Shown piece after piece: positions 3,371-43,714 of a DNA stretch of 43,714 nucleotides. The stretch lies in IMG/VR virus record IMGVR_UViG_3300049795_000032, positions 1 through 43,714 of that record; one strand, 5' to 3'. Under the pieces are notes generated by a model, which saw only the letters and a list, made by a program, of their open reading frames with translations, was not told the DNA's origin and made no database searches. Source of the DNA: a virus. Made by a program: the position numbers and the translations under genes. How positions within the stretch are numbered: the first letter of the stretch is position 1; each line of letters begins with the position of its first letter.

Positions 3371-3445
3371 TGGTTCCACGTCTAGGATTCGAACCTAGGT
3401 AAGCGAATTCAAAGTCCGCTGTCTTGCCAATTGGACGAACGTGGA
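3371..3445 (-). tRNA. tRNA-Gln (anticodon UUG) with encoded CCA
   Basis: Folded by hand from the reverse complement. Acceptor stem TCCACGT/ACGTGGA, D-loop AATTGGCA with GG, anticodon stem GCGGA/TTCGC, loop CTTTGAA (U33, TTG), T-arm CTAGG-TTCGAAT-CCTAG, discriminator A then CCA; 75 nt. Confidence 0.85.
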
Positions 3446-3499: not shown

Positions 3500-4300
3500 C
3501 TAGGCGGGCTGCTTCACCTTCGAGTATTTGATCGCTGTGATTGTGACCTTGTTGCCCTTGGTCTGGTGAGGGAAGGTGCTCACGTGCACCAATTTGCCGT
3601 TGAAGGTCTTAGCCTTAGAGGCCTCGTTCCAAATCTGTTCGAGCATTCCGGACAGCTTGGTGTTGATTGCCTGGAAGTGTTCGGGGATGGACTTGTCATA
3701 CCCGAGGATAGCTCCCGCGCACTCCAGCAATTGCGGGAAAGCGACTTGACGATTTGCGAGCTTGAACACCACACCGTGTTTGCTGCCCGGGGGATTGTTG
3801 GTTGACGTGCTTTGCAGCGTCTCCAACTCGAGAATGAGCACAGCGCCGTTTTTCTGGCTGTTCTTGAGAATGACGTCCACGACGCGGCAATCTGCCTCCG
3901 CCGTCTCACAGGGGAAATAGTTGCCGCTTTCGTACATCTGCGCGCCGTTCAGGCCCGCGAGCGCGCTCGGATCGACCAGTGCACTCGGCGGGGCTTGGTA
4001 TCCTTGCGGCGGACCGTATCCGGGGGGTGCGCCGGGCACCGGTGCGGGGTATCCCGGGGGTTGCGCGTACCCCGGAGGACCGTACGGAGGGAGCGGCGCG
4101 GGGGGTGGAGGGGCTTGGCCCGGGGGCGCGAAGCCGGGGGGCGCCATGGGGGGCGGCGCGTACCCCGGGTGTGCGCCGGGTGCGGGAGCCGCAGGCGCTT
4201 GGGGAACGTAACCGGGGGGGTATCCGTAGCCGGGCGCGGGAGCCTCGGGCGCTTGGGGAACGTAACCGGGGGGGTATCCGTAGGGATTGGAGGGATTCAT
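3500..4300 (-). CDS. Hypothetical protein with a Pro/Gly/Tyr-rich low-complexity N-terminal half and a globular C-terminal domain
   Basis: 266-aa ORF with an ATGA overlap to the upstream gene. N-terminus is NPYGYPPGYVPQAP repeats. The C-terminal ~150 aa are of normal composition; function not recognised. Confidence 0.75.
   Translation of the reverse strand: MNPSNPYGYPPGYVPQAPEAPAPGYGYPPGYVPQAPAAPAPGAHPGYAPPPMAPPGFAPPGQAPPPPAPLPPYGPPGYAQPPGYPAPVPGAPPGYGPPQGYQAPPSALVDPSALAGLNGAQMYESGNYFPCETAEADCRVVDVILKNSQKNGAVLILELETLQSTSTNNPPGSKHGVVFKLANRQVAFPQLLECAGAILGYDKSIPEHFQAINTKLSGMLEQIWNEASKAKTFNGKLVHVSTFPHQTKGNKVTITAIKYSKVKQPA
4194..4283. repeat. 36-bp direct repeat pair (4194-4229 and 4248-4283) inside the Pro-rich coding region
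   Basis: ggcgcttggggaacgtaaccgggggggtatccgtag occurs twice, 54 nt apart. It encodes the duplicated YGYPPGYVPQAP unit. Confidence 0.9.
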
Positions 4301-9876: not shown

Positions 9877-12291
9877 TTGCATGGAGTCAAGTGGCCGTGT
9901 ACAGATTGCCGGGTGCGTGATCCGAGATGCCCGGGCGCAATCCCATTTCCAAAAACCGGCCCCATATACGGCTTGACAGCGGACGGGCTATGTGCCTGCA
10001 GCCGTCCGACCTGTGCGGGACCGGGCAAACACCAACGCCTATATGGTGCGCCTGTCGCACTGAACGGGGAGGGGTACGCGATTTATACAGGTGCGGCCGG
10101 TGAACACGGCTCCGGCGTGTTCGTGGTCGACTGCGACGAGAAGCCCGGCATTTCAGGGTTTGCTAATTTCCGAAATCTGTGCCTACAGCACGGCCACGAC
10201 ATCCCCGACACCCTTATGGTCGTCTCGGGGGGTGGAGGCGTTCATTTCTTTTTTCAAGCCCCGGAATTTCCAGTCAAGTCGTCAAAGTCGGGCGCGCTTG
10301 GCAAGGGGATAGATATCAAGGGCGAGGGCGGATACGTCGTCGGCCCGGGCAGTCCTCACAAATCAGGCAACGCGTATTACGTGTGGCGAGATGCGCCCGT
10401 GGCAATTGCCCCTAAATGGCTGCTCGATTGGCCGGGCCTACGTAGGACGTCCAAGACGATAGACGAGTTGGATCCATCCGACTTGGGTGCGTATGCCCCC
10501 GCATTTATTGACCCCTCCACCCCTGTAGGCGCGTTTCGCATTGCGTCGTTCGTCGCAGAGTGCAAGGGCGAAGCTGGCACCCTAAAACCGTCCATCGAAG
10601 GCGAGGGTGGGAGCGCGCGGCTCGTCCACGCCGCGAAGCGTGGAACGCTCTACTGGCAGATCGAGCCGGTGCTTTGCGCGGCGATCATGCTGGATCACTT
10701 CGTTCCCCGGTGCATCGATCGGGGGCGGCCGTGGACCCATGACGAAGTGCATCGCGCGTGCATCCGAGCCGTGCAAACGAATGAGGACGTATCCCCCGGG
10801 CCCATCCCCGACAATTGGGGTCAGGACCTTTTACGCGCGGCCATCACAGGGCTTACCCCCGCGCAGCTCGATACGTCCATAGCCCCTCGAGTGCCCGGAG
10901 AACACGCAGCGCATTGCACGTGCGGGGGCGGGTCAGAGCACCGCTACAAGATCAGGGCAGGGGAATCGATCGCCAACGGCAAGATATTGCCCAAGTCGTT
11001 TAGCGAATTGGTATTTTACCTCCATCGTCACCCTGATTGGCAAGGCGTGCTCCGATACGACGCGATGCATGAGCGCATTCGCGCGGTGCAACCACCGGTG
11101 CACTTGGACGGCGAGGACAATTTCGAGGGTGTGACCGAAGTGGATGTGGGCCGCGCCAAGATTTGGATGGAATGCGTGGCGGATGCGTCCGTTTCCTTTG
11201 ACGCGCTATGGCCAGCCGTGGAAGCAGCGGCCAAGCTACACGAATTCCACCCCGTCAAAGACTACTTCAACGCGCTACCCGCGGGCAATCCCCGAGTATT
11301 CGACACCCTCGCACACGAATGGTTCGGGGTGCCCAAGGATGATTTGCTCTCCCATGAGATGCTAAAGCGTTTCTTGGTCGCCTCTGTCCGTAGAACGCTA
11401 TGGCCTAACACCGATTTGGCCAAGGTGGATACGGCTTTGGTTCTAATCGAGCCTACGGGTGGCGCAAAGAAGACTACCTTTATCGATGCGATGTGGCACA
11501 GGGAATGGGCGGTACACCAATTGCCCAATTTCGATAAAGCCGCGGACATGAGTAACCAAATCTCCCGTAAGGCTGTTGCGGAATTCGGGGAGATCGAGCG
11601 CATTCTTAGGCAAGACCCCGAGACATTCAAGGATTTCTTGACTCGAGAGTGGGACGAATTCCGCCGAGCGTACGCACGTGACACGGTAGTTAAGCCTAGG
11701 ACGTGTGTGATCGTCGCAACGACTAATAAAGAGCGGTATGTCAGGTCGGATTGTGACGATGCCGTCCTACGTCGTCTATGGTCCATCCGCGTCCGTCGTA
11801 TCATTCCCTTGGACCTGGTCCGGGAAATGCGGGACGAGGTATGGGCCGCGGCCGTGGGTCTCGCACATGACTCGCAATTCCACCACTGGTTCGATAAGGG
11901 CGATCGGTGGGACGTGGCACTCATGTCCTTGCATAAACAGGATCACGTGCAGGAAGATACCTGGACGGATGACGTGCTCAATTACTGCATAGGTAAGACC
12001 TTCGTCACGGGTGCGGAAGTGTTTCGCTTCGCCATCGCCAAGGGAGATTTGAATTGGTTGCTCACCTACGGCCGGGATAAATCCGCGCAGTGGAAGGTCG
12101 GATCGTGTCTTCGCTCGATAGGTTGCGAGGAAGGTGTGACGCGGGACAAGTCGACGCAGCGCTTGATTCGAGGGTGGAAGGTCCCGGAAGCCGTGACCAA
12201 TGCACGGCCCACGGCGGATGCCCTGCGCGAAAAGACGATCACGGAGGGTAGAACCCTCTCGGTATTGACGAACGAAGCCAAAGGAGTATGA
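9877..12291 (+). CDS. Bifunctional primase-polymerase (PrimPol) fused to a D5/VirE-like P-loop helicase
   Basis: N-terminal motifs GYAIYTG...VFVVDCD, GGGGVHFFF and GIDIKGEGGYVVGPGSPH. C-terminal P-loop LIEPTGGAKKTTF followed by CVIVATTN. 804 aa. The TTG start is uncertain; GTG 9913 is an alternative. Confidence 0.8.
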   Translation: MHGVKWPCTDCRVRDPRCPGAIPFPKTGPIYGLTADGLCACSRPTCAGPGKHQRLYGAPVALNGEGYAIYTGAAGEHGSGVFVVDCDEKPGISGFANFRNLCLQHGHDIPDTLMVVSGGGGVHFFFQAPEFPVKSSKSGALGKGIDIKGEGGYVVGPGSPHKSGNAYYVWRDAPVAIAPKWLLDWPGLRRTSKTIDELDPSDLGAYAPAFIDPSTPVGAFRIASFVAECKGEAGTLKPSIEGEGGSARLVHAAKRGTLYWQIEPVLCAAIMLDHFVPRCIDRGRPWTHDEVHRACIRAVQTNEDVSPGPIPDNWGQDLLRAAITGLTPAQLDTSIAPRVPGEHAAHCTCGGGSEHRYKIRAGESIANGKILPKSFSELVFYLHRHPDWQGVLRYDAMHERIRAVQPPVHLDGEDNFEGVTEVDVGRAKIWMECVADASVSFDALWPAVEAAAKLHEFHPVKDYFNALPAGNPRVFDTLAHEWFGVPKDDLLSHEMLKRFLVASVRRTLWPNTDLAKVDTALVLIEPTGGAKKTTFIDAMWHREWAVHQLPNFDKAADMSNQISRKAVAEFGEIERILRQDPETFKDFLTREWDEFRRAYARDTVVKPRTCVIVATTNKERYVRSDCDDAVLRRLWSIRVRRIIPLDLVREMRDEVWAAAVGLAHDSQFHHWFDKGDRWDVALMSLHKQDHVQEDTWTDDVLNYCIGKTFVTGAEVFRFAIAKGDLNWLLTYGRDKSAQWKVGSCLRSIGCEEGVTRDKSTQRLIRGWKVPEAVTNARPTADALREKTITEGRTLSVLTNEAKGV

Positions 12292-12839
12292 TCATGTCTA
12301 TGGACCAAACCAAATTCAATTCGATCGTGTGTCTGAAATCCGGCTCGCATCCGAAGCCCCCGAACATGGACGAGCTCCCGCAAGAGGCTTGCGTCATGGA
12401 GGCCGTTGCTTGGATTACGGGGGATGTGTGGAGTGATGCCCCGATTTGCGTGCCCGAAACGATTGCGTGCGTGGCACGTAGTCTGAACGACTCAATAAAA
12501 GATGACGCGTTCCGCACGGAATTGTTGCTCCCGCTTATTCCTAAAATGCTAGGCTTGTCTAAGTCCCCCGCCTTGGAGTCGAAACGTGCTTACGTTGCGG
12601 CCAATTTCGTATTGCGTACGCTTATGCCCTCGCTAATGGAAGATATCGGGCAAATCTCTCTGGCGGAGCAATACAGGTCCATTCCTGAAATTGTAGATTC
12701 TCAATCCGCCGCCCGTGCCGCCGCCCGTGCCGCCGATGCGGCCGCCGCCTATGCCGCCGCCCGTGCCGCCGCATGTGCCGCCGCCGCCGATGCGGCCGCC
12801 CCGAAAAAGTATCACCCCATGTGTGAGGTATCCGAATGA
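12288..12839 (+). CDS. Hypothetical protein with an alanine-rich periodic C-terminus
   Basis: 183-aa ORF. ATG 12294 is better placed relative to AAAGGAG than ATG 12288. The C-terminus is AARAAARAADAAAAYAAARAAACAAAADAAA. Confidence 0.65.
   Translation: MIMSMDQTKFNSIVCLKSGSHPKPPNMDELPQEACVMEAVAWITGDVWSDAPICVPETIACVARSLNDSIKDDAFRTELLLPLIPKMLGLSKSPALESKRAYVAANFVLRTLMPSLMEDIGQISLAEQYRSIPEIVDSQSAARAAARAADAAAAYAAARAAACAAAADAAAPKKYHPMCEVSE
12707..12802. repeat. Imperfect 12-nt periodic GC-rich repeat (gccgcccgtgcc and gccgatgcggccgcc units)
   Basis: Seen directly. Encodes the Ala-rich tract and generates a spurious poly-Gly ORF on the opposite strand. Confidence 0.8.
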
Positions 12840-13705: not shown

Positions 13706-13780
13706 AACGGTAACCTCCATGTATGGGAGCAATAGCGTGTCACGGCTTTGGAGTCAAGCTTTGGGTCGAAATGCTTCTGG

Positions 13781-14101
13781 CACCTACATAGTAACCGTAA
13801 CAACCGTAACGCCTAACCGTAACAGAATTTACTTTCCTTTTCCCGAGGTATCTTGATCTTGTTACGGTGTTACGGTTGTTACGGTTAGTTGGAGAAGACT
13901 ACCCCGGCACTCCTCCCCAAATGTATTTAAGTATTAAGAGAAATAAATACACAGAAGTCGCGCGCCGTGACGTGCCGGGGGACTTTGCCAAAACTAACCG
14001 TAACAACCGGAACACCGTAACAAGATCGAAAAACACCGAGAAATAGAAAGTCAAAATCTGTTACGGTTATGTTACGGTTAGTTACGGTATTTATGTAGGT
14101 G
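13781..14101. repeat. Origin-like iteron palindrome: 12 copies of the octamer ACCGTAAC/GTTACGGT in two ~108-bp inverted arms around an AT-rich core
   Basis: ACCGTAAC at 13794, 13803, 13816, 13997, 14006 (degenerate, ACCGGAAC) and 14014. GTTACGGT at 13861, 13869, 13878, 14060, 14071 and 14081. The outer ends cacctacata (13781-13790) and tatgtaggtg (14092-14101) are complementary. Confidence 0.85.
13918..13956. other. AT-rich core at the dyad centre of the iteron palindrome (candidate DNA unwinding element)
   Basis: aaatgtatttaagtattaagagaaataaatacacagaag, in an otherwise GC-rich genome. Confidence 0.5.
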
Positions 14102-14369
14102 CATGTAGTTATTCGCTGAAATGCTACGTTTGGACGGAAAGATAAATCGATGGCGGATCCTGTGTGGCGGAACGATTTTTCGCGTAATGTTCGCATTACA
14201 CTCGGGGAGTGTGATTTTACGTTCACACTTGGCATTATTTTGACCCTATCGAGATATGACTCCGTTGTCATAGCGGAAACCTCGGGAAACCATTTATTTG
14301 ATTTATTTGCTATGACAATGGTGTCAGGGTTCAAAGGCTAGGACATTAGCGTGACGCGGCTTTGCTCGC

Positions 14370-15591: not shown

Positions 15592-15684
15592 GAGGCACAT
15601 CCTAGGCGCATAGGGTTATTGCGCACGTCCGTTACGAATGCGGCGTCGACATCCCCGGGGTAGCTAGGATCCCCTCTCGCATTC

Positions 15685-15725
15685 AAGGGCCCGGCATCGA
15701 AAGGTGTCGGGCCCTTGTCTATTTG
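15685..15725 (+). terminator. Rho-independent terminator
   Basis: aagggcccggca-tcgaaagg-tgtcgggccctt stem-loop (one mismatch), then gtctattt. Confidence 0.6.
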
Positions 15726-15738
15726 GCTACCCTAGTGT
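15726..15738 (+). promoter_or_regulatory. GCTACCCTA motif copy 1 (late-promoter candidate) abutting a GTG start
   Basis: gGCTACCCTAgtgtGTG. The TACCCT hexamer ends 5 nt before the start codon at 15739. Confidence 0.55.
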
Positions 15739-16872
15739 GTGGCACTCCAAGTATTACGCATTGACGTGACCTCTGGCTCTCTCTCCAAAGCGATCGAGCT
15801 TGCGGACGGTTCATTGCGCATCCCTGCCCGCGTCGCACGCACGGGCGTGCAGGTCTACCAATATGCGGATGGAAGCACGGTCAGGGAATACCGTTCCCCT
15901 GCCGAGGTATTCTCTAAGGATGCCGTCCAGTCATTCGATGACGTGGCCGTGACCATCGGGCACCCCCTCTCGCCCGTGTCACCCGTGAACTGGAATTCCC
16001 TTGCCAAGGGACATATCGACGATCCGCAGAAATCGGAAACGTTTCTGACCGCGGATGTCATTGTCAAGGATGCCGCCACGATCAACGCGATCAAGGCCGG
16101 CGATTTGGTAGAATTGAGCGCTGGGTATTACGTCACGGTCGACCCTACGCCAGGCGTCACGCCCGAGGGCGAGCCCTACGATGCCGTGCAAACGAATATC
16201 GTAGGCAACCACGTGGCGCTGCTCCCCAAGGGGCAAGGGCGCGCGGGCCCTGACGTGCGACTTTATGCGGACAGCAAGGATGGATCCGCGATTTGCTACC
16301 CTAAGGTCGAACCCGATAACGCACCGTCAACGGAGATTGCACCAATGGCCGACAAGATCACGACCGAAGCCCGCACCGATAATGCCCCGGTTGTGCCCGT
16401 CGCAGTGTATGACAAGGCGTGCGCGGAGCGAGACGCGGCCCTCGCCAAGCTCGCGACCGTCGAGAGTAATGTCACCAAGGCGGATTCGGCCCTTGCCGAT
16501 CGTGTTGCCCGTCGCGTGCTCGCTTGCCGAGTTGATTCGAGCGAAGCAACGATCAAGCTCGCTACCGATTCCAAGGTGAGCGACCGCGACGTCATGGTGG
16601 CGGTCATTGCCGCCAAGCGCCCGAGTATCAAGCTCGATGGCAAGAGCGACGAATACGTGGCCGCGATGTTCGACGTGTGCGCCTCGGAAGCGCAGACCGA
16701 TACCGCCGCGCGTAATGACGCGAAGCGCGCGAACACGCAAGCTGTGAGCGGTCTCGTCAATGCGCTTACCGGAGCGGATAAGCCACTCGAGCAACGTAAT
16801 GACGGAGTCGAGGATATGGCCGAACGCGCCAAGCAAGAACGCGATCGTAAGAACCGCGGAATCAAAGCCTGA
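15739..16872 (+). CDS. DUF2213-type prohead scaffold/protease-like protein
   Basis: Motifs ARVARTGVQVYQY, VTIGHP, ELSAGYY and VGNHVALLPKGQGRAG match my recollection of DUF2213. The helical, charged C-terminal half looks like scaffold. Lies upstream of the capsid gene. Confidence 0.6.
   Translation: MALQVLRIDVTSGSLSKAIELADGSLRIPARVARTGVQVYQYADGSTVREYRSPAEVFSKDAVQSFDDVAVTIGHPLSPVSPVNWNSLAKGHIDDPQKSETFLTADVIVKDAATINAIKAGDLVELSAGYYVTVDPTPGVTPEGEPYDAVQTNIVGNHVALLPKGQGRAGPDVRLYADSKDGSAICYPKVEPDNAPSTEIAPMADKITTEARTDNAPVVPVAVYDKACAERDAALAKLATVESNVTKADSALADRVARRVLACRVDSSEATIKLATDSKVSDRDVMVAVIAAKRPSIKLDGKSDEYVAAMFDVCASEAQTDTAARNDAKRANTQAVSGLVNALTGADKPLEQRNDGVEDMAERAKQERDRKNRGIKA
16295..16303 (+). promoter_or_regulatory. 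GCTACCCTA motif copy 2, internal to the scaffold/protease gene
   Basis: atttGCTACCCTAAGGtcg. It is 42 nt upstream of in-frame ATG 16345, which has a GGAG 10 nt upstream. Confidence 0.4.
16345..16872 (+). CDS. Possible nested in-frame scaffold product (C-terminal 175 aa of the 15739-16872 gene)
   Basis: In-frame ATG (M203) with GGAG upstream and an internal motif copy. The product MADKITTEARTD... is helical and charged. Confidence 0.3.
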   Translation: MADKITTEARTDNAPVVPVAVYDKACAERDAALAKLATVESNVTKADSALADRVARRVLACRVDSSEATIKLATDSKVSDRDVMVAVIAAKRPSIKLDGKSDEYVAAMFDVCASEAQTDTAARNDAKRANTQAVSGLVNALTGADKPLEQRNDGVEDMAERAKQERDRKNRGIKA

Positions 16873-18492: not shown

Positions 18493-18524
18493 ACGCCCGC
18501 GGACCAGTGCCGCGGGCGTTTTTC
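18493..18524 (+). terminator. Rho-independent terminator after the capsid gene
   Basis: Perfect 10-bp stem acgcccgcgg/ccgcgggcgt, 7-nt loop, then a T-run. Confidence 0.85.
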
Positions 18525-18530
18525 ATTTCC

Positions 18531-18543
18531 GCTACCCTAGTGC
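18531..18543 (+). promoter_or_regulatory. GCTACCCTA motif copy 3 abutting an ATG start
   Basis: cGCTACCCTAgtgcATG. The hexamer ends 5 nt before ATG 18544. Confidence 0.55.
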
Positions 18544-35988: not shown

Positions 35989-36018
35989 AGCCCGGCCCCC
36001 TAAAAAGGCCGGGCTTTG
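35989..36018. terminator. Hairpin terminator between convergent operons
   Basis: agcccggcc-ccctaaaaa-ggccgggct, followed by tt. Confidence 0.6.
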
Positions 36019-36023
36019 ACTAT

Positions 36024-36479
36024 TTACCGCATGCGACTAAGGCGCCAAAGTCCAAGCGCGACAGCATCCATCATGTTGTGCGCTTGCGTCTTCGGTAGTT
36101 TGGGGATTCGTGCCAGCTCGGCGGGAAAGAGTACCTTTGACGCGCGTGCATGGTGCACGTCCTTAGGGACCTGCCCTTTCCATTCTGCAGGTTTCACCAG
36201 GGATGGAAGCACGCCGATCGATTCGAAGCGACCTCGCCAGCGGCCGACTTCCTCGGCCACTTGGATCAGATCATTGGGATCGCCCTTACTTTGCGCGGCG
36301 CGGTAGATTTGGGGAAGCTCGATTACCACGTTCAAGTGTGTCGGATGTTCGACCCATTCCAGGGGCCAAATGTCTTTAGAGGCGATGGACGTGACCCCGC
36401 ACGTATGCAGCTCACAGCTTGCGGTAAACAGCGCCCACCCCGTACAGCGACCCGGATCGATGGCCAATAAATATGCCAT
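36024..36479 (-). CDS. RuvC-like Holliday junction resolvase
   Basis: MAYLLAIDPGRCTGWALF (first catalytic Asp), VVIELPQ (Glu) and HNMMDAVALGLW (C-terminal Asp). 151 aa. Confidence 0.7.
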   Translation of the reverse strand: MAYLLAIDPGRCTGWALFTASCELHTCGVTSIASKDIWPLEWVEHPTHLNVVIELPQIYRAAQSKGDPNDLIQVAEEVGRWRGRFESIGVLPSLVKPAEWKGQVPKDVHHARASKVLFPAELARIPKLPKTQAHNMMDAVALGLWRLSRMR

Positions 36480-36485
36480 TGCTCG

Positions 36486-37013
36486 TTACCCTTTCGATGA
36501 CTTGGACAATTCCAGCAAGCGAGATTCCATCGCGGCAAGCTCCTCGGATGACGCGCCCGAGAGATCGATGTGAGTGTCTACCTTTTCGGTACTCTCCCCG
36601 CGCATGAGACGATCCAGCTTGACGATCGCCTCCGTCAAGCGGATCAAGTCCCCCGGGCGCAAGGTGGAGTGCGCGCCGGCTTCGACATCCGATAGGAGCT
36701 TTTCCATCTCGCGACGGACGACGGATCGCCCGAGCGCGGTAATCTCCATGTGCTCGGCGCTGATTTCCTCGGTCCGCTGCTCGAGCAGCGAGCGAATGGT
36801 GTCTTGCCGCACGCCGTCTAGGTGCTCGTCCCAAAGCGCAGCGCGTTGCGCCCAGTAGTGCGCCGCCATCCAATCCCGCACCTTGATTGGATCGACCCTG
36901 CGACCCTTCAAAAACACGATGAGAGCGCGACGAGGGCGGGCGTCGCGGAAAGCTTGGAACACTTCCCATGATTCGTCGGTATCGTACGGCTGGCGGTCCC
37001 AAGGGTTGGACAC
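36486..37013 (-). CDS. Terminase small subunit-like protein
   Basis: The N-terminal ESWEVFQAFRDARPRR...VRDWMAAHYWAQRAALWDEH resembles the HTH/WxxR pattern of a common TerS family, followed by a coiled-coil C-terminal part. GTG start with GGAGAC upstream. Confidence 0.45.
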   Translation of the reverse strand: MSNPWDRQPYDTDESWEVFQAFRDARPRRALIVFLKGRRVDPIKVRDWMAAHYWAQRAALWDEHLDGVRQDTIRSLLEQRTEEISAEHMEITALGRSVVRREMEKLLSDVEAGAHSTLRPGDLIRLTEAIVKLDRLMRGESTEKVDTHIDLSGASSEELAAMESRLLELSKSSKG

Positions 37014-37032
37014 GATACAAGTCTCCTACACT

Positions 37033-37061
37033 AGTATAGCGCAATTAGCAAGCGTGCAATT
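37033..37061 (-). promoter_or_regulatory. Candidate host-type promoter for the TerS-RuvC operon (-10 TATACT)
   Basis: Reverse complement reads ...TTGCAC/ATTGCA...TATACTagtgtaGGAGACttgtatcGTG. The -35 spacing is ambiguous (15-17 nt). Confidence 0.3.
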
Positions 37062-37063
37062 AG

Positions 37064-37076
37064 GCTACCCTAGTGC
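37064..37076 (+). promoter_or_regulatory. GCTACCCTA motif copy 9 abutting the portal ATG
   Basis: agGCTACCCTAgtgcATG. The hexamer ends 5 nt before ATG 37077. Confidence 0.55.
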
Positions 37077-38540
37077 ATGGCACGTCAGAAGACGAGTAAA
37101 GGCCCTATCGTGTCGCCTGAGATCAAGGGGGATGGGTGGGTCAACCCCTATACGGGCTTCGGTACGTCGCGCGATCGTTCCACGGCAGGGTATTATGCCA
37201 GGGATGGACAGCTCTATTCCCAGGAATTGAAGTCTCTTTACTATGGCGACGACATTTGCGCGACCATTGTAGACGCGCCCGTCGAGGAATCGTTCCGTAA
37301 CGGGTATTGCTTGACCGCGAAGGACAAGCAACTCGCCGAGGAATTCGATAAGTGGACGGAATCCGAGCTTCACCTGTCCGAGAAATTGGAGGAAGCCGAG
37401 ACATACGCCCGCATTTACGGGGGCTCGCTTATCGTGCTCGGCTTGGACGACGGCCAAACCCTCGATAAGCCGCTCAATCCCAACGCTGTCAAGTCCATTG
37501 ATTGGATGCTCACGTTGGATCGGCGCTATGCGCAACCCATGAGCTACTATTCAGACCTTGGACCCAAGCTCGGCATGCCTGCCAGCTATAACATTTCGTA
37601 TTACGCCGGGCGTTCGACCAAGTCTTTCCTAGTTCATGAGTCGCGCTGCGTTCGTTTTCGCGGCGTCAAGGTGGATTTCCAGCGCCAAGCCGAGTTGGCG
37701 GGGTGGGACCAAAGCGTATTGCAGCGCCCGTATGACGTGTTGCGCAAGTTTGCGGCCGGTTGGGACAATGCAGCCGCGATGCTTGGCGACGCGTCGCAGG
37801 GCATTTTCAAGATGCAAGGGCTTACCGAGCTACTTAGCACCAAGAATGAAAGCACCAAGCTTGCCGATCGTATGCGCGCGGTGGATATGACGCGCTCCGT
37901 CACTCGTTCTATGGTCGTGGATAAGGAGCGCGAGGACTTTACCCGCGTGACTCAGTCCTTTTCGGGCGTGCCAGAAATGCTAGACCGCTTCATGCAACGC
38001 CTTAGCGCGGCTTGTAAGATCCCCGTTTCCATTCTCATGGGCCGATCGGCCGCGGGAATGAACGCAACGGGAGACTTGGATGTCAAGTCGTGGGAGAAGC
38101 AAGTAGCGGCATACCAGAAGCGTTCGCTCACTCCCCGCATCAGGGAAGTGCTTTCCCTATTGCAACTCGCCAAGGATTCCCCGAGCAAGGGCAAGGCTAT
38201 TGAGAAGCTCGAAACTAAGTGGCATCCCCTCAGCCAGCCTAGCACGAAAGAGGAAGCGGACACTCGCCTCGCCGTCGCCAATGCGGACGCGGTCTACCTC
38301 GACCGCGACGTATATAAGCCCGAGCAAATAGCCATCGCGCGCAGCGGACGCGGGGAGTGGAGCATGGACGCGCCGGAAGTGGACGTGGAGGCGCTGGAAG
38401 CGGCAATGCAGCGCGCTGAGACTTTCGAGGACACGCCCACCCCGAACACCCCGCAAGGTCCCAATGCATTACCGCAAGCCCAGCAAAGCCCGAATCCGCC
38501 TAGCTATGACAACCAATCGCAACCGGGTGCGAAAGATTGA
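37077..38540 (+). CDS. Portal protein (DUF1073-like)
   Basis: 487 aa, followed by a MuF-like gene. Family assignment is from recollection of the DUF1073 portal class. Confidence 0.7.
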   Translation: MARQKTSKGPIVSPEIKGDGWVNPYTGFGTSRDRSTAGYYARDGQLYSQELKSLYYGDDICATIVDAPVEESFRNGYCLTAKDKQLAEEFDKWTESELHLSEKLEEAETYARIYGGSLIVLGLDDGQTLDKPLNPNAVKSIDWMLTLDRRYAQPMSYYSDLGPKLGMPASYNISYYAGRSTKSFLVHESRCVRFRGVKVDFQRQAELAGWDQSVLQRPYDVLRKFAAGWDNAAAMLGDASQGIFKMQGLTELLSTKNESTKLADRMRAVDMTRSVTRSMVVDKEREDFTRVTQSFSGVPEMLDRFMQRLSAACKIPVSILMGRSAAGMNATGDLDVKSWEKQVAAYQKRSLTPRIREVLSLLQLAKDSPSKGKAIEKLETKWHPLSQPSTKEEADTRLAVANADAVYLDRDVYKPEQIAIARSGRGEWSMDAPEVDVEALEAAMQRAETFEDTPTPNTPQGPNALPQAQQSPNPPSYDNQSQPGAKD

Positions 38541-39231
38541 GCGCACATTCGTAGCGGATGTGACGGCCATCGTTCGGGGCATGCATGACGTGTTTATGCG
38601 TCGGCTGTCCCCTCGTCTCGCGAGCGCGGTCAAGGTGGACGCCACGACGGCGGGCGTAATCGAAGGGGCTTTGCGCACCGTGCTCCCGCAAATCGGAGCC
38701 AAGGTAGGCAAGGCGCACGACAAGATGAGCAACGCCTTGGACCAGACCTACAAGCAAACGGTCGGGGAGATCTTGCCCGTGGGCTTCCAGTCGCTCGGCA
38801 AGGGCGTACAACGCGCCGCGCGCGACGCCCGCGCGGTGTCCATCTCCCTGGTCGAAACCGCAGCAAGGGACTACGCAGCACAGGTGCGAGCCATCTTCTC
38901 GGACCCCGCCAAGCCGCTCGGGCGTAGGGTGGAGAACTTGCGCGACGACTTGATCGAGCGGGGCAACGTGTCGGAATCCCGCGCCGAGTTGATCGCGCGA
39001 GACCAAACCCTCAAATTGAACGGAGCGATCAATAAGGCGAGGCAGGAATCAGTAGGGGTGGAGCGCTACACATGGAGCACGTCAGGGGATGAGCGCGTGC
39101 GGGACGAGCACGCGGCACTGGACAGGGAAACCTTTTCGTGGGGCTCACCCCCGAGCGTCGGCCACCCTGGCGAGGACATCCAATGCCGGTGCATCGCGTT
39201 GCCTATCATTGACGACTTGGCGGATTTGTGA
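38464..39231 (+). CDS. Head morphogenesis protein (Mu F / SPP1 gp7-like); start uncertain (38464, 38506 or 38560)
   Basis: C-terminal ERYTWSTSGDERVRDEHAALDRETFSWGSPPSVGHPGEDIQCRCIALPI is the characteristic Mu F motif. Confidence 0.75.
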   Translation: MHYRKPSKARIRLAMTTNRNRVRKIERTFVADVTAIVRGMHDVFMRRLSPRLASAVKVDATTAGVIEGALRTVLPQIGAKVGKAHDKMSNALDQTYKQTVGEILPVGFQSLGKGVQRAARDARAVSISLVETAARDYAAQVRAIFSDPAKPLGRRVENLRDDLIERGNVSESRAELIARDQTLKLNGAINKARQESVGVERYTWSTSGDERVRDEHAALDRETFSWGSPPSVGHPGEDIQCRCIALPIIDDLADL

Positions 39232-39261
39232 AAATAAAATCGTGTTCGACACGAAATTGGC
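39228..39261. repeat. Inverted repeat, left arm (34 bp, 33/34 complementary to 39681-39714). A weaker match extends inward to about 39280
   Basis: gtgaaaataaaatcgtgttcgacacgaaattggc. It begins at the last base before the MuF TGA stop. Confidence 0.9.
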
Positions 39262-39300
39262 ACGGGGCTTGCTATTGCGAATTCCGTGCCAGGGGTTGGC

Positions 39301-39334
39301 AGCCCGGCCGAGAAATCGGACCGGGCTTTCTGTT
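39301..39334 (+). terminator. Hairpin terminator inside the cassette (U-tract on the plus strand)
   Basis: agcccgg...ccgggct stem, followed by ttctgtt. Confidence 0.5.
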
Positions 39335-39585
39335 CAGTCGTTCGAATCAGCGCCGAACATTTCCGCCAAGCGCTCCGCTTTGGTCGGGCGCTTATAGCTG
39401 TAAGCTTTACCGTTGACAGAGACGATTCGATCTTGCGTGGAGTATTTCGGGATTTCGATCCCTTCCGCCTTGGCGTGGATTCCGCTGCGCTCGTCCCCGT
39501 CGCCGTGGTGTCCGACAGAGGTGACAATGCCGGTCCACTCTTTGCCGGTGAAACCCTTGCAAACCACCGCATCGCCTTGCTTCAT
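39334..39585 (-). CDS. Hypothetical 83-aa protein carried by the inverted-repeat-bounded cassette
   Basis: MKQGDAVVCKGFTGKEWTGIVTSVGHHGDGDERSGIHAKAEG... Small, beta-rich (SH3/Tudor-like impression only). Confidence 0.6.
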   Translation of the reverse strand: MKQGDAVVCKGFTGKEWTGIVTSVGHHGDGDERSGIHAKAEGIEIPKYSTQDRIVSVNGKAYSYKRPTKAERLAEMFGADSND

Positions 39586-39591
39586 GAAGAT

Positions 39592-39619
39592 ACAATAGCG
39601 CGTGCAACGAGAAGGTCAA
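39592..39619 (-). promoter_or_regulatory. Near-consensus host-type promoter of the cassette gene (TTGACC-N16-TATTGT, 6 nt before the ATG)
   Basis: Reverse complement reads TTGACCttctcgttgcacgcgcTATTGTatcttcATG. Implies a leaderless transcript. Confidence 0.5.
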
Positions 39620-39680
39620 TAAACTATTTCACGTCGCGTGCATTATTTCTTGGCAGGCTTATTGCTATAGCAAGGACCGC

Positions 39681-39714
39681 GCCAATTTCGTGACGAACAC
39701 GATTTTATTTTCAC
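39681..39714. repeat. Inverted repeat, right arm (pairs with 39228-39261). A weaker match extends inward from about 39662
   Basis: gccaatttcgtgacgaacacgattttattttcac. It ends at the last base before the TGA stop of the minus-strand gene 39711-39914. Confidence 0.9.
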
Positions 39715-39914
39715 ATTTCGCCGCGGTCCCGGTCGAACCTTTCCAAGACGTCATCCGAGACGCGCTCGCGGGAGATAATGCCTTGCGTGCGGCACCTGGC
39801 CATTACGCCGGAATGTATGTACTCGATCCAGCCGTCAAGCTCCACGTCCGTGTACGCTTCACGCAATTCCGTCATCGCTTCCAAATACGGAATCTGTACC
39901 GTCAGGCTGTCCAT
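39711..39914 (-). CDS. Hypothetical protein
   Basis: 67-aa ORF. Its stop codon lies inside the right inverted repeat. Confidence 0.55.
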   Translation of the reverse strand: MDSLTVQIPYLEAMTELREAYTDVELDGWIEYIHSGVMARCRTQGIISRERVSDDVLERFDRDRGEM

Positions 39915-40755
39915 TGTTCTTGCCTTTCATGCTGCAAAGTGCGATGGCTTCCGCGTCAGTCATGCAATCCTTGACGGCGTTGGCGAGTCTCGCGCGTGCG
40001 CGCTCGCACCACGTCGCGTCAAAGTCCATTCCGATGTACCGGCGGCCGAGCATCGTGCAGGCCCGATTGCGCCCGATCCGCAGAACGGGTCGAAGACCGT
40101 TTCCCCTCGTTCGCTGAATTTGGCGACCAGCATAAGGGCGAGGGCGAGGGGCTTCTCGTTCGGGTGTCTGCCTGCCTTACCTCGGGTGCCCGAACATTTC
40201 CAGATCATGCACCGGACAGGGGAAAAGAAGCGTTGGAACGGCCACGGGAGCTACGGAAGGCCACGCCTTCATACGCGGCCGCGGGACGGTCCGCTGTGAG
40301 CTGCCCCATGCTGTTCGGCTTGTACCACACACCCGAGCGTACGAATTCTTTGCGGCCCAAGGTCAGGTCAAAGCGCCCAAGATCTTCTATCGTGCAGAAT
40401 GAGAGTGCCCATCGTTTGGAGACGCGCACTAGGTCGCGGGCGAATTCGTAGGATTGGAGCGCGGCAAATGTTCGCTTGACAGTGCTCGGAGTACGGGGGA
40501 TCCGTGATCGTCACGTCAACGCACGCATCGGGCATCGGGCAGGGTGCGCAATGTCTCGAAAGCATCCGTGACGTGTTTGATAATGAAGCTCATGTGTAAT
40601 TTATCCGGTGCACGGGACAAGCTTGCCGGGCTTCTATTGTTGCGGGCGTGGCGTAGCAATCCAGGCACGTGCACCCCCGTAGAGCGCAATTGTTTTTCGT
40701 ACTTCTCTCTAGCATCCAATGCGGCGCGGCGCCATTCTACGGAACCGTATTTCAC
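39859..40755 (-). pseudogene. Beta-class N4/N6 DNA methyltransferase (N6_N4_Mtase type) broken into at least four reading frames
   Basis: Colinear fragments: MSFIIKHVTDAFETLRTLPDA | CVDVTITDPPYSEH | VKRTFAALQSYEFARDLVRVSKRW...VWYKPNSMGQLTADRPAAAYEGVAF | IWKCSGTRGKAGRHPNEKPLALALMLV...VFDPFCGSG | RACTMLGRRYIGMDFDATWCERARARL. A 7-bp tandem duplication lies at 40524-40537. Confidence 0.75.
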
Positions 40756-41135
40756 GTGCACCCTCCATTCGTATCGAGGTAGAGAAGGAACATCGCGCAG
40801 CATATCGCGTGCGCCAAATGACTCTCCCCTGTGTCCGCATCTTTGGACTTGGGGTCTTGCCACCAAGCATCCATGTGACGCATGAGAGCATCGTAATATC
40901 GTTGCCGAGCTTCTGGCACTTGGATCCAATTCTCGCGCCCGTACTTCTTAGCCCCGAACATGAGCACGCGAATGACAGCGTGCGACGAGCCCTTGGGCAA
41001 AAGGGACCATTCCAGCTTGCCCGCGTCGTCCTTACGCCCTTGTCCGACCGGCTGCGCGTCCCGCACGCGACACGGACAAGCGCAAGCGTGCGGACCGTCG
41101 CCACCATGGCACACGCACGGGCACTTGTCGGTCAT
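40752..41135 (-). CDS. MazG-related dATP/dGTP diphosphohydrolase-like protein with a Cys-rich N-terminus
   Basis: DAGKLEWSLLPKGSSHAVIRVLMFGAKKYGRENW...YYDALMRHMDAW...DADTGESHLAHAICCAMFLL matches the phage dGTP_diPhyd_N-type pattern as I recall it. ATG 41135 has GGGAGGA 7 nt upstream. N-terminus is CPCVCHGGDGPHACACPC. Confidence 0.6.
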   Translation of the reverse strand: MTDKCPCVCHGGDGPHACACPCRVRDAQPVGQGRKDDAGKLEWSLLPKGSSHAVIRVLMFGAKKYGRENWIQVPEARQRYYDALMRHMDAWWQDPKSKDADTGESHLAHAICCAMFLLYLDTNGGCT

Positions 41136-41290
41136 GGCCAAATCCTCCCGAACGCCAGTCCTAGCAATATGCCCGCACCCAACGCCATGATCCAAATGAA
41201 CAGACGCTCCGTCCAATGCTTTTCGAGGCAGCGGCATCGCTCGTCCCCTAAGACAATCTCGTCACAATCCTTGCACCAACGCACTCTCAT
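41132..41290 (-). CDS. Hypothetical 52-aa zinc-ribbon plus TM microprotein (below track cutoff)
   Basis: MRVRWCKDCDEIVLGDERCRCLEKHWTERLFIWIMALGAGILLGLAFGRIWP. ATGA overlaps with the TerL stop and the MazG-like start. Confidence 0.45.
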   Translation of the reverse strand: MRVRWCKDCDEIVLGDERCRCLEKHWTERLFIWIMALGAGILLGLAFGRIWP

Positions 41291-42816
41291 CCGAGTAGCT
41301 CCCTTTCGAGATTGTCCACTGCGTCTTTCATGTCAGGAATAAAGGTCATGTTAGAAGCCGCATACTCTAGCGCCTGTGAGGTGCTGTCCACCTGATCGTC
41401 ATGCGCCGCGCGTGGGAACCCTATAAGCTCGGTTTCATAGTCGTGCGCCCATACCGCCGCGTACTCGTTACCCGTGTCAGGGAAAAATACGTTACCTGCC
41501 CTGAACACACCTTGCACGGCCATGGCGCGCGTGACCTTGCTGTCCGCGCCGGGCGAATATGGAACCATGCCAGGGACGACGCGCTTTAGGGTGGACATGA
41601 TAGCGGGCCCGTTGGCCTTGTCCTCGATAAGAATCGTGTGAGCCTTAGGCCATTTCGCCGCGAAGCTCTTTACCTCGTCCACGAGATCCGCGAATTCGAG
41701 GCGCCGCCGCACCAAGTCTATCAGGGAGAATTGCGCGCCCGCTACGTACCAGCAAGTACCCACGCACCAATCGGAGCCGTCCGTGCCCTTGAAAGAAAAG
41801 TCCCAAGACTGGAGATAGAAACCGTCAGAGGGCAGAGAAGATTTGACTCGCCCTTGATACGTGTAGTCGTCCACTGTAGCGGGGGAGAGCGTCCAGCGCT
41901 TGAATGTCTCGGCTTTGAATATGGAACCGCCGGGGGGAACGGGGTTCTGCCCGTACTGCGCGGAAACGACGGTCGGATCGTTGTTAGTTTTTATTTCTTG
42001 AATGACTGTAGGGGTAAAGCGCTCTTGCCAGAATGACTCGCCTTCCACCGCGCGCGGGTCTTCCCATCCGATGGACGTAGAGAACGTCTTACCTGTGTAC
42101 TCGAGAGGGATGCACACGTGCTCCCATCCGCTTTCGTGTGCCAGCACGTGGCCCGAAAGATCGTTCTCCGCTACGCGTTGCATGATGATGCCGGTGCGGC
42201 GCACGCGATGATCGCCGCGGGAGGCCATCGTTGTTTGCCACCAATTGACTACCTCGTCCAATGACAGCTTAGTGACGTTCTTAGGCTTGATAGGATCGTC
42301 AATTACGCGGTTCAGGGGGTGGCGCCCCGTCGTTTTACCGTCCACCGAAGTGGAGAAGCGCCAACCACCCGTAGGCTGGCCGTGCGCGTCGTACACGTTG
42401 AATTCGCCCACGCCGTCATTAGGATCCAAGCGAAACAAATCGCTCCACCTGGCTTGGAACCAAGGCGAGGATATGAGTGTTTGCACCTTGCCCGCGTCTC
42501 GCTTGGTGAGCAATCCGTCGAATGACGTATAAAGGAAGGTCTCCGCAGGGTTGCGGAGCCATGCCCACGCGTTCCACAGCACGCTAACGACGTTGGATTT
42601 GCCCGAGCCCGGCGGGACGTTGAATATCACGTTACGCAATTGCCCGGCCGTCATCGCTTGGAGGTGCTCGGCTATACATGCGACGTGCCAATTGTCCATG
42701 TAAGGCGCGGCAGGTTCGATAACGTGCCAGGCTTTAGAGATGAAATAGTGTAGAGAACGCCTACCGCGCTCCCTCTCAATCTCGATCAAGTGCTCTTCTA
42801 CGGTACGCTTACGCAT
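41287..42816 (-). CDS. Terminase large subunit
   Basis: Walker A-like FNVPPGSGKSNVV and Walker B-like NRVIDDP. Nuclease-domain acidic motifs ILIEDKANG and AAHDDQVDS. 509 aa. Confidence 0.85.
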   Translation of the reverse strand: MRKRTVEEHLIEIERERGRRSLHYFISKAWHVIEPAAPYMDNWHVACIAEHLQAMTAGQLRNVIFNVPPGSGKSNVVSVLWNAWAWLRNPAETFLYTSFDGLLTKRDAGKVQTLISSPWFQARWSDLFRLDPNDGVGEFNVYDAHGQPTGGWRFSTSVDGKTTGRHPLNRVIDDPIKPKNVTKLSLDEVVNWWQTTMASRGDHRVRRTGIIMQRVAENDLSGHVLAHESGWEHVCIPLEYTGKTFSTSIGWEDPRAVEGESFWQERFTPTVIQEIKTNNDPTVVSAQYGQNPVPPGGSIFKAETFKRWTLSPATVDDYTYQGRVKSSLPSDGFYLQSWDFSFKGTDGSDWCVGTCWYVAGAQFSLIDLVRRRLEFADLVDEVKSFAAKWPKAHTILIEDKANGPAIMSTLKRVVPGMVPYSPGADSKVTRAMAVQGVFRAGNVFFPDTGNEYAAVWAHDYETELIGFPRAAHDDQVDSTSQALEYAASNMTFIPDMKDAVDNLERELLG

Positions 42817-43429
42817 GGGGACACGAATGCTCGTCGCCTTTACACTTCCAGCAATAGAGATCCTCAGCCACGTCTACAATTTCCGTCGCTTGTTCGCGCA
42901 ATGCGTCAACTAGTTCCAAAGCTTTACGGGGGTCGCAACGAAGCAGCTCACCTAATTCTTTGGGTGTCGCGCCCTCCCATGCTGCGATCAAGGCTTCCAA
43001 CTCTCGGGGGTGGAGATCTCGCACGACACGGCGCACCGTCCTACGGGCTTCCGCGCGTTCGGCCCCTACCTCAGTCTGCGAGTTGTCACGCCGTGAGCCG
43101 TCCAACGGACCGTAAAGGCAATCGGCTGCGTCATTCTTGGTCAGTTTATTGCGCGACGTGGATACGCCTTTCTTTAGGCGGATGCACTCTTGTATGCGGT
43201 AAAGTACCTTCCACTTGGCGTAGGAGTAGAACCCTCCCTTGTCGGGCTGATAATTATGGAGCGCCTCAATCAACCCAATGGCGCCTTCCTGCGCCAAGTC
43301 CTCATAGTCCGAGCCTTTAGCGAAGCGGTGCACGATATTGTGCACTATGCGCATATTGTCGAGGACGAGTTTATCTCTCAGCCTAAGGCTTCCGGTGCGT
43401 CGCCATTCGAAAAAAACGGATTTGTCCAT
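42809..43429 (-). CDS. Sigma-70 family RNA polymerase sigma factor
   Basis: Region 2 reads DLAQEGAIGLIEALHNYQPDKGGFYSYAKWKVLYRIQECI. Region 4 HTH reads LHPRELEALIAAWEGATPKELGELLRCDPRKALELVDALREQ. C-terminal CWKCKGDEHSCPH. Overlaps the TerL start by 8 nt. Confidence 0.8.
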   Translation of the reverse strand: MDKSVFFEWRRTGSLRLRDKLVLDNMRIVHNIVHRFAKGSDYEDLAQEGAIGLIEALHNYQPDKGGFYSYAKWKVLYRIQECIRLKKGVSTSRNKLTKNDAADCLYGPLDGSRRDNSQTEVGAERAEARRTVRRVVRDLHPRELEALIAAWEGATPKELGELLRCDPRKALELVDALREQATEIVDVAEDLYCWKCKGDEHSCPHA

Positions 43430-43482: not shown

Positions 43483-43692
43483 TCAGAGGGGGAGGCTAAG
43501 CGCAAAGCGGATGGCATGAGCGATGTTCGGGCACCGGAAAAGCTTGGCATAGACGTCCATTGACAGGGGGACACGCTCATGCTGGCCAGCCTTGACGATC
43601 GGCTTATGCAGGGACATCGCGAACGCACATTCAATGTACGTTTCGTGTCCCGAGTAGTCCGGGTCCCATAAAAGCAAGACTTCTCGGCCCAT
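43483..43692 (-). pseudogene. Nucleoside 2-deoxyribosyltransferase-like / DUF4406-like gene, 3' part in the -1 frame relative to the 5' part
   Basis: REVLLLWDPDYSGHETYIECAFAMSLHKPIVKAG resembles the C-terminal S/G-x-E...A...KP motif of this fold. The N-terminal GIYIAAPY part is encoded at 227-128 in another frame. Confidence 0.45.
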
Positions 43693-43714
43693 GTGCTCAT
43701 CGGATGGCCTCCAA
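43588..43714. repeat. Terminal overlap, copy B (identical to 1-127)
   Basis: Read directly. Confidence 0.95.

Follow-up and report, generated by a model that had tools for sequence, protein, structure and literature searches.

A mirrored pair of terminator-like arms around an orphan gene at the meeting point of two convergent phage operons

Why should a single small gene, lodged where two phage operons run into each other, be enclosed by two long mirrored copies of one sequence? The question arises in the IMG/VR virus record IMGVR_UViG_3300049795_000032, whose 43,714 nucleotides (the whole stretch analysed here, referred to as the window) contain at 39228-39714 an orphan gene of 83 amino acids (p83) set between inverted repeats that also carry the stop codons of the genes on either side. 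The original prediction described this unit as a self-contained cassette added between two convergent genes, a description supported by five relatives that share its gene order but lack the unit. We find the feature to be genuine, with clear limits. We interpret it, with a probability of about one half, as a moron-type, single-copy, lineage-specific cassette in which two copies of one terminator module insulate an orphan gene.

A single further occurrence of the 34-mer at 39228-39261 was found, in reverse complement at 39681-39714 and differing at 1 position, and the near-perfect inverted repeat (33/34 positions) that had been predicted was thus borne out; shuffled sequences gave an expectation of 0.00 such matches and none of 100 shuffles contained one. 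Ungapped extension lengthens the arms to 65 nt, 83 % complementary and 359 nt apart, so that the unit measures 487-489 bp. The arm boundary is sharp, with 34/35 of the outer positions paired (1 mismatch) and 10 mismatches among the inner 30 positions. A weaker complementarity had been anticipated to run inward for about 19 bases; it does continue inward, but its length is about 31 nt. Within a comparison set of 556 kb from 61 other phage loci we found 5 inverted repeats of at least 30 nt at 80 % identity within 2 kb, none of them longer than 34 nt. As expected from the original prediction, the arms are much more AT-rich than the genome (the 34-nt arm cores have 38 % G+C vs 58.5 % for the genome and fall in the lowest 1.4 % of 34-mers), and both neighbours end in G-TGA within the arms. 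The gene on the left, MuF, ends in TTG-TGA (stop 39229-39231) and the 67-aa gene on the right, p67, in ATG-TGA (stop 39711-39713, minus strand). These features are laid out as follows.

38464-39231, plus strand: MuF / SPP1 gp7-type head morphogenesis gene, left neighbour and last gene of the two-gene portal-MuF operon
39227-39291, no strand: left arm, reading inward the MuF stop codon, an A-tract, a 15-nt hairpin (hairpin A), AATT and a 36-nt hairpin (hairpin B)
39651-39715, no strand: right arm, mirror copy of the left arm, carrying the stop codon of p67
39711-39914, minus strand: p67, orphan 67-aa gene, right neighbour, closing the sigma-terL-accessory operon on the side of the cassette

An assembly artefact or a chance repeat is scarcely credible as the source of this structure. 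Inverted-duplication chimeras do occur in some assemblies, but a Logan contig assembled independently (SRR35783400) matches at 100 % identity along 9.3 kb, the unit included, and the repeat is therefore no assembly artefact. The shuffles (0/100) count against chance, the arms are diverged and not identical copies of each other, and the open reading frame (ORF) that they enclose is a good coding sequence.

Read outward, each arm runs through hairpin B, three bases, hairpin A and then TTTTATTTT. The small internal hairpin that had been pointed out in each arm is present, and with TTTTATTTT behind it on the outward strand it scores as an outward-facing terminator; in each arm the terminator score is obtained only on the outward-reading strand, minus for the left arm and plus for the right. 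Only 4 sites in the genome, both strands counted, have 8 or more T within 9 nt, and 2 of these are the arms, each with its T-run directly behind a hairpin. The whole arm (hairpins A and B) folds at -17 to -28 kcal/mol, varying by arm and strand. From its position and strand, the left-arm site appears placed to end the p83 transcript, along with read-through from the operon of the large terminase gene (terL), before antisense entry into MuF, and the right-arm site appears placed to halt plus-strand transcripts before antisense entry into p67 and the terL operon. The two-hairpin layout is common to both arms although the hairpin-B half is about 33 % diverged (10/30 mismatches), a hint, drawn from two sequences only, that the layout may have been kept despite divergence. 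The hairpins and terminator-like sites of the unit, together with a GC-rich hairpin that stands between the left arm and p83, are listed below.

39230-39254, minus strand: left-arm terminator-like site, UCGUGU-CGA-ACACGA then UUUUAUUUUC, hairpin about -6 kcal/mol
39688-39712, plus strand: right-arm terminator-like site, UCGUG-ACGAA-CACGA then UUUUAUUUUC, hairpin about -5 kcal/mol
39257-39292, no strand: hairpin B of the left arm, UUGGCACGGGG...CCGUGCCAG
39650-39685, no strand: hairpin B of the right arm, containing the 12-nt palindrome TTGCTATAGCAA
39301-39335, plus strand: GC-rich hairpin AGCCCGGCCGAGAAATCGGACCGGGCT, with the hairpin proper at 39301-39327 (-21.9 kcal/mol) and the tail TTCTGTTC on the plus strand only

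We considered the palindrome TTGCTATAGCAA as a candidate operator and dropped it, as it has no good further copies in the genome. Another of the genome's four strong T-runs belongs to a terminator-like hairpin with TTTTTATTT at 41965-41997 (plus strand), antisense to the terL coding sequence, which might stop antisense transcription into terL.

The GC-rich hairpin had been proposed, as a feature at 39301-39334, to terminate the 83-aa gene. That assignment did not hold, because the T-rich tail TTCTGTTC is found on the plus strand only, and we read the hairpin as the likely, native-style terminator of the portal-MuF operon. A second 27-nt hairpin at 35989-36015 has in common with the one at 39301-39327 the stem AGCCCGG.C / G.CCGGGCT, followed by TT(T) on the plus strand. 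Both stand at convergent junctions, 6-8 nt away from a minus-strand gene's stop codon, and no shuffle gave such a pair. The two hairpins may form a genome-specific terminator family, absent from relatives.

The gene within the arms is, as predicted, an 83-aa minus-strand gene, and by composition it is a real coding sequence. With a G+C content at third codon positions (GC3) of 0.70, its codons score 0.384, the best of the six frames, and the gene as a whole has 57.1 % G+C. We regard the p83 ORF as very likely translated, since this codon score is at or above that of confident phage genes.

39334-39585, minus strand: p83, orphan 83-aa gene with phage-like codon usage and with no homologue or family match
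39592-39619, minus strand: sigma-70-type promoter-like site TTGACC-N16-TATTGT, whose -10 hexamer ends 6 nt before the ATG, with no Shine-Dalgarno sequence
39620-39650, minus strand: AT-rich stretch upstream of the -35 hexamer, within a 65-nt promoter region (39586-39650) of 41.5 % G+C

There was no credible match for p83 in Pfam or PHROGs (the sole Pfam match, Calsequestrin, scored 16.5 bits, under the cutoff), a word-indexed search of 5.8 billion protein clusters returned only p83 itself, and tblastn against phages reached a best E-value of 0.2. Full HMMER searching against 1.84 billion representative proteins returned p83 and seven large proteins, several of them matched over multiple stretches. 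We rejected these seven as spurious summed repeat scores; those that were checked comprised one ankyrin-repeat protein and otherwise type IX secretion sorting domains. An AlphaFold model built from the single sequence is of low confidence (pLDDT 55.7), with beta strands at the N-terminus, and a Foldseek comparison of the model with the PDB gave nothing below E = 0.6. The top structures were Tudor-like barrels, unusable as evidence, and the resemblance of p83 to small Tudor/SH3-like beta-barrels is a weak and non-significant hint.

A near-consensus promoter set for a leaderless start had also been predicted upstream of p83. The site and its placement stand, but the match is only 9/12 and not significant alone. 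A leaderless p83 mRNA is predicted because the -10 hexamer lies 6 nt before the ATG and no Shine-Dalgarno sequence is present, and such a start would fit the habits of the genome as suggested by the portal gene and the gene at 15739. In both, the motif GCTACCCTAGTG, which has 10 copies in the genome vs 1.9 expected, ends one base short of the start codon. The sites are at 15726, 16295, 18531, 23603, 24934, 25289, 27085, 31632 and 37064 on the plus strand and at 37029-37040 on the minus strand, two copies standing back to back between the small terminase gene (terS) and the portal gene. The motif probably serves as a promoter peculiar to this phage for late genes with leaderless mRNAs, and the sigma factor that the phage encodes (42809-43429) may recognise it; the promoter-like site of p83 differs from the motif in type, being sigma-70-like. 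Long GC-rich hairpins with T-tracts at 15684-15738 and 18493-18543 immediately precede GCTACCCTAGTG; together with it they may make up combined terminator-promoter modules that separate structural genes and recall the PeSL cassettes of T4-type phages.

Taken as an insulated orphan-gene cassette, the unit would work in the following way. A host-type RNA polymerase would start at TTGACC/TATTGT and produce a leaderless p83 mRNA. This transcript, and any read-through from the terL operon, would pass the GC hairpin, which offers no U-tract on that strand, and minus-strand transcripts would then end at hairpin A and the U-tract of the left arm before an antisense run into MuF. Portal-MuF transcripts would end at the GC hairpin with its U-rich tail on the plus strand, while those that escape would cross p83 in antisense and end at hairpin A and the U-tract of the right arm before reaching p67 and the terL operon. 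The inverted repeat would accordingly consist of one terminator/insulator module (hairpin B, hairpin A and U-tract) present twice in opposite orientation, each arm stopping outgoing polymerase only, and the outer 35 bp would be near-identical through recent inverted duplication or through gene conversion between the arms. A side effect is that the cassette could be flipped by homologous recombination between its arms, which would do no harm because the design is symmetric. Occasional flipping of this kind is plausible and could also keep the arms alike.

Several observations weigh against this account. Hairpin A is weak for a terminator (5-6 bp, -5 to -6 kcal/mol) and unlike the other terminators of the genome, which are GC-rich with stems of 10-15 bp. 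Sites that match the promoter at 9/12 number 4 between 24000 and 43714, vs 7.8 expected. The right-arm terminator is partly redundant, as the GC hairpin is already placed to stop MuF transcripts, and terminator function alone leaves the near-identity of 35 bp unexplained, including 8 nt beyond the hairpin. The feature is also confined to one genome, so a basis for judging its conservation is lacking. We additionally considered a cassette that had split an ancestral palindromic bidirectional terminator and rejected this as the sole explanation, each arm holding a whole hairpin and about 38 further similar bases.

The same arms might act at the level of RNA, a role that we consider decidedly unlikely. 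Transcripts spanning both arms would fold into a stem of roughly 65 bp to be cut by RNase III, separating the RNAs of the convergent operons or setting the stability of the p83 message. Such a stem is present in the minimum-free-energy and centroid folds of both strands, with z-scores of -8.4 and -8.0, and on the plus strand G-U pairs lengthen it inward by about 8 positions. However, any long inverted repeat folds in this way, which says nothing on function, and the local hairpins of each arm would be the first to fold as transcription proceeds. Because the promoter is internal to the arms, p83's own transcript would have one arm only; the mismatches of the inner half are mostly not G-U compatible, no Rfam match was obtained at the gathering threshold or at E up to 1, and there are no relatives carrying the arms in which covariation might be sought.

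Comparison with other phages indicates that the unit is a lineage-specific insertion in a variable (hyperplastic) accessory-gene slot, because five relatives with the same gene order are without it, their stop codons at this junction overlapping or lying 8 bp apart. No relative at the DNA level was found in the phage collection, and the best of the MuF homologues is 59 % identical. The gene order in question is common to a group of uncultured phages: resolvase and terS lie on one strand and portal-MuF on the other, followed by terL, sigma factor and DNA polymerase genes converging on MuF (36024-43429 here). Empty sites of the kind suggested by the original prediction do exist in these five independent relatives, where MuF abuts or overlaps the convergent gene and the cassette is found in 0/5. 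The overlap between the stops of MuF and the convergent gene, present in four of them, is 4 bp (CTAG where the sequence was read).

L002, from IMG/VR: stops 8 bp apart; several small minus-strand ORFs between MuF and terL
L051, from JGI: stops overlap by 4 bp (CTAG); SprT-like gene, 185-aa gene, methylase and two small genes between MuF and terL
L052-54, from Logan: stops overlap by 4 bp (CTAG); one 127-aa gene between MuF and terL
L061, from NCBI: MuF stop overlaps the terL stop by 4 bp; no gene between MuF and terL
L062, from JGI: stops overlap by 4 bp; two small genes between MuF and terL

None of the five has a cassette, a spacer or a terminator at the MuF junction, and a sensitive BLAST search matched neither the arm nor the GC-hairpin sequence in the 61 loci. 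The C-terminus of MuF is of normal length (14 residues past the CRC motif vs 10-16 in the relatives), and therefore the arm begins where MuF naturally ends. In the present genome the slot from MuF to terL holds p83, p67, a methyltransferase in four frames, a dGTP diphosphohydrolase-like gene and a 52-aa gene. The methylase region is common to L051 and this genome, and the stretch from the MuF stop to about 39880 is unique to this genome. Measured against the nearest relative, the novel segment is thus larger than the repeat-bounded unit and takes in p67 as well, for which protein searches found no homologue either. The DNA methyltransferase is split into four overlapping frames (39859-40565, minus strand) that include a DPPY-motif fragment and an N6_N4_Mtase fragment. 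Its break is identical in the second assembly, the homologous L051 region has also been called as separate short genes, and the gene looks like a decaying accessory gene.

How the unit reached this slot bears on whether it is, or has been, mobile. The original prediction offered a MITE-like mobile element as one interpretation. In such a case the unit would be a mobile insertion cassette (MIC) with p83 as its passenger gene, which moved into the MuF/terL junction through a transposase that the host or a further element provided in trans and that recognised the arms as terminal inverted repeats. The size of the unit, the sharply bounded and near-perfect outer arms of 34-35 bp, the termini 5'-TGTG...CACA-3', the AT-rich arms unlike the genome's own terminators and the relatives without the unit all fit, and no transposase lies inside, as in MICs (PMC3913671). 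In addition, a 4-bp direct repeat, ATTT, flanks 39228-39714 (at 39224-39227 and 39715-39718) and is the only direct repeat at the ends of the unit. We consider such an origin unlikely; it is kept alive because the moron-type reading leaves unexplained the near-identity of the outer 35 bp, the need for a right arm and the style of the arms.

A search for the arms among metagenome contigs, genomes, plasmids and phages brought up no further copy beyond this genome, in which the arm motif occurs exactly twice, inverted. Arm pattern scans, which demanded an exact match at 20-24 specified bases and so could miss diverged copies, gave 0 further copies in IMG/VR and 0 in 185,579 GTDB species genomes; BLAST of the arm against plasmids and phages gave no match. 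Matches in JGI metagenomes were rejected as chance, the five contigs concerned representing one homologous tandem-repeat ORF in which the match was confined to the pattern letters. There being no p83 homologue, the protein collections searched contain no other full unit. Look-ups of the exact p83, p67 and MuF proteins returned one further contig, identical, with the unit at the same site and in the same orientation. The ATTT repeat is probably a coincidence, because the empty site rebuilt from it leaves both MuF and the 67-aa gene without stop codons, and a 4-bp repeat at a freely chosen boundary is in any case weak evidence. Integrase, invertase, transposase, Resolvase, Recombinase and Phage_integrase were not found among the ORFs scanned, which were the large ORFs judged likely genes and several smaller ones. 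The native codon usage of p83 and the native-type GC hairpin argue against recent import of the whole unit and would favour long residence or local assembly. With no second arm copy, no workable empty site, no transposase and no p83 homologue, the interpretation as a MITE-like, multi-copy element was not supported. The evidence does not support mobility of the unit, and nothing shows it moving or flipping.

The possibility that the unit is an invertible segment served by a host recombinase had also been raised. As a programmed inverton, its arms would be the crossover sites of a host-encoded site-specific invertase. The arm length lies within the known range of inversion sites, both orientations of the symmetric cassette would be viable, and inversion at the arms keeps the stop codons of both neighbours because the outer 22 nt of the arms are identical. 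The earlier claim that either inversion or excision would spare the neighbours is correct for inversion only, since removal of the arms by excision takes both stops. The scanned ORFs contain no serine or tyrosine recombinase, although a host-encoded enzyme is possible, and the two assemblies have the unit in the same orientation. The phage looks lytic, and a flip changes nothing obvious in a cassette with its own promoter and the same terminator at both ends, leaving no switch logic. A programmed inverton is very improbable on these grounds.

Several known systems resemble the unit in part. The morons of tailed phages (Hendrix et al. 2000, as summarised in PMC2839356) are single extra genes with their own promoter and terminator, placed between genes of conserved modules. 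Like a moron, p83 is an extra single gene absent at the same position from the five relatives, the closest of which is 59 % identical in MuF. Consensus-type sites for a putative promoter and a putative terminator stand in the right places, the promoter at 9/12 being no significant match by itself. Unlike a moron, p83 has the same composition as the phage, and only the arms and the promoter region are AT-rich; the gene is bracketed by a mirrored 65-nt repeat that is terminator-like in both outward directions, it is co-directional with one of the two convergent operons and it resides in a phage without sign of being temperate.

The PeSL cassettes of T4-type phages are promoter/stem-loop modules that flank orphan genes in hyperplastic regions, where they insulate transcription and provide homology for shuffling; there are about 50 per genome, and as direct repeats they yield mini-circles (PMC2839356). 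The unit shares with them the regulatory bracketing of an orphan gene, but its arm motif occurs twice only and in inverted orientation, so that recombination would invert and not excise. Mobile insertion cassettes (MIC231 and the qnrD and qnrS2 mic elements) have imperfect terminal inverted repeats around a passenger gene and no transposase inside, their parent insertion sequence is known, and they show a transposase acting in trans, a target-site duplication and recurrence at several sites (PMC3913671). The unit likewise has terminal inverted repeats around p83 (65 nt, 83 %; outer 34/35) with no transposase inside, whereas a parent insertion sequence, a workable target duplication and multiple copies were not found for it in the collections and ORFs scanned.

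The mycobacteriophage elements MPME1 and MPME2 are 439-440 bp long, with inverted-repeat ends and a small ORF, and some phage genomes have them while close relatives do not; their mobility shows in identical copies that occupy different sites in several closely related genomes, and they add 6 bp at IR-L (PMC3029335). Our unit is similarly ultra-small, with inverted-repeat ends, a small ORF and no counterpart in relatives. It differs in being single copy with 65-nt arms, its only other occurrence being in the same genome, at the same site, in a second assembly. The inverted repeats of the MPMEs are short, about 11 bp. Multiple copies, a target duplication and a parent transposase define the mobile families, and by these tests the unit fails. 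A more speculative proposal, to which we attach little probability, is that the unit is the first sighted member of a class of ultra-small gene-carrying cassettes of lytic phages, whose arms would serve both as insulators and as handles for moving or flipping. The agent would in that case be the phage's own homologous recombination (PD-(D/E)XK nuclease and Holliday-junction resolvase) or an enzyme acting in trans, and the cassette would be an inverted-repeat counterpart of PeSLs and MPMEs that delivers ready-to-express orphan genes where operons converge. We continue to favour the insulated, moron-type cassette.

The genome in which the cassette resides appears to be that of a lytic phage. The window is a contig with an identical 127-bp direct repeat at both ends (1-127 and 43588-43714), which indicates that the genome is complete and circular (or was assembled as a circle), with a length of about 43,587 bp. 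It encodes a DNA polymerase A, a primase-polymerase/VapE protein, a helicase and a PD-(D/E)XK nuclease for replication, a Holliday-junction resolvase and a small terminase, a sigma factor, a large terminase, a portal protein and MuF, and a structural block of myovirus type with capsid, cement, sheath-like, tape-measure and baseplate proteins. Judged by its gene content, which includes a DNA polymerase, a primase, a sigma factor and nucleases of its own and shows no sign of a temperate lifestyle, the phage looks lytic. Its gene order is unusual in that portal and MuF, a two-gene plus-strand unit, have minus-strand genes on both sides, terS/resolvase on one and sigma-terL-accessory on the other.

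Elsewhere in the window, a nested inverted-repeat region at 13767-14115 (83-nt arms, 80 % complementarity) lies between divergent gene blocks and is built of about 10 copies of GTTACGG / TAACCGTAAC, which point both ways and surround a centre rich in AT. Its appearance suggests a replication origin of the iteron type or else a master operator region. Short tandem repeats occur within ORFs at 12706-12797, where a 12-nt GC-rich unit encodes the Ala-rich tail of a 183-aa protein (12288-12839), and at 4008-4282, where 54-nt and 30-38-nt repeats are Gly/Pro-rich. There is one tRNA-Gln gene (anticodon TTG) at 3371-3445 on the minus strand.

How phages acquire orphan genes and express them safely is only partly understood. 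In the arrangement described here a new gene sits where two late operons collide, flanked on either side by what is predicted to be one and the same stop signal. Should the two arms terminate transcription as predicted, a cassette of this design could be inserted in either orientation without exposing its neighbours to antisense transcription. For now, as a single copy around an orphan protein, it is a well-documented curiosity; if more examples are found, mirrored terminator arms could prove to be a general packaging format for phage accessory genes.

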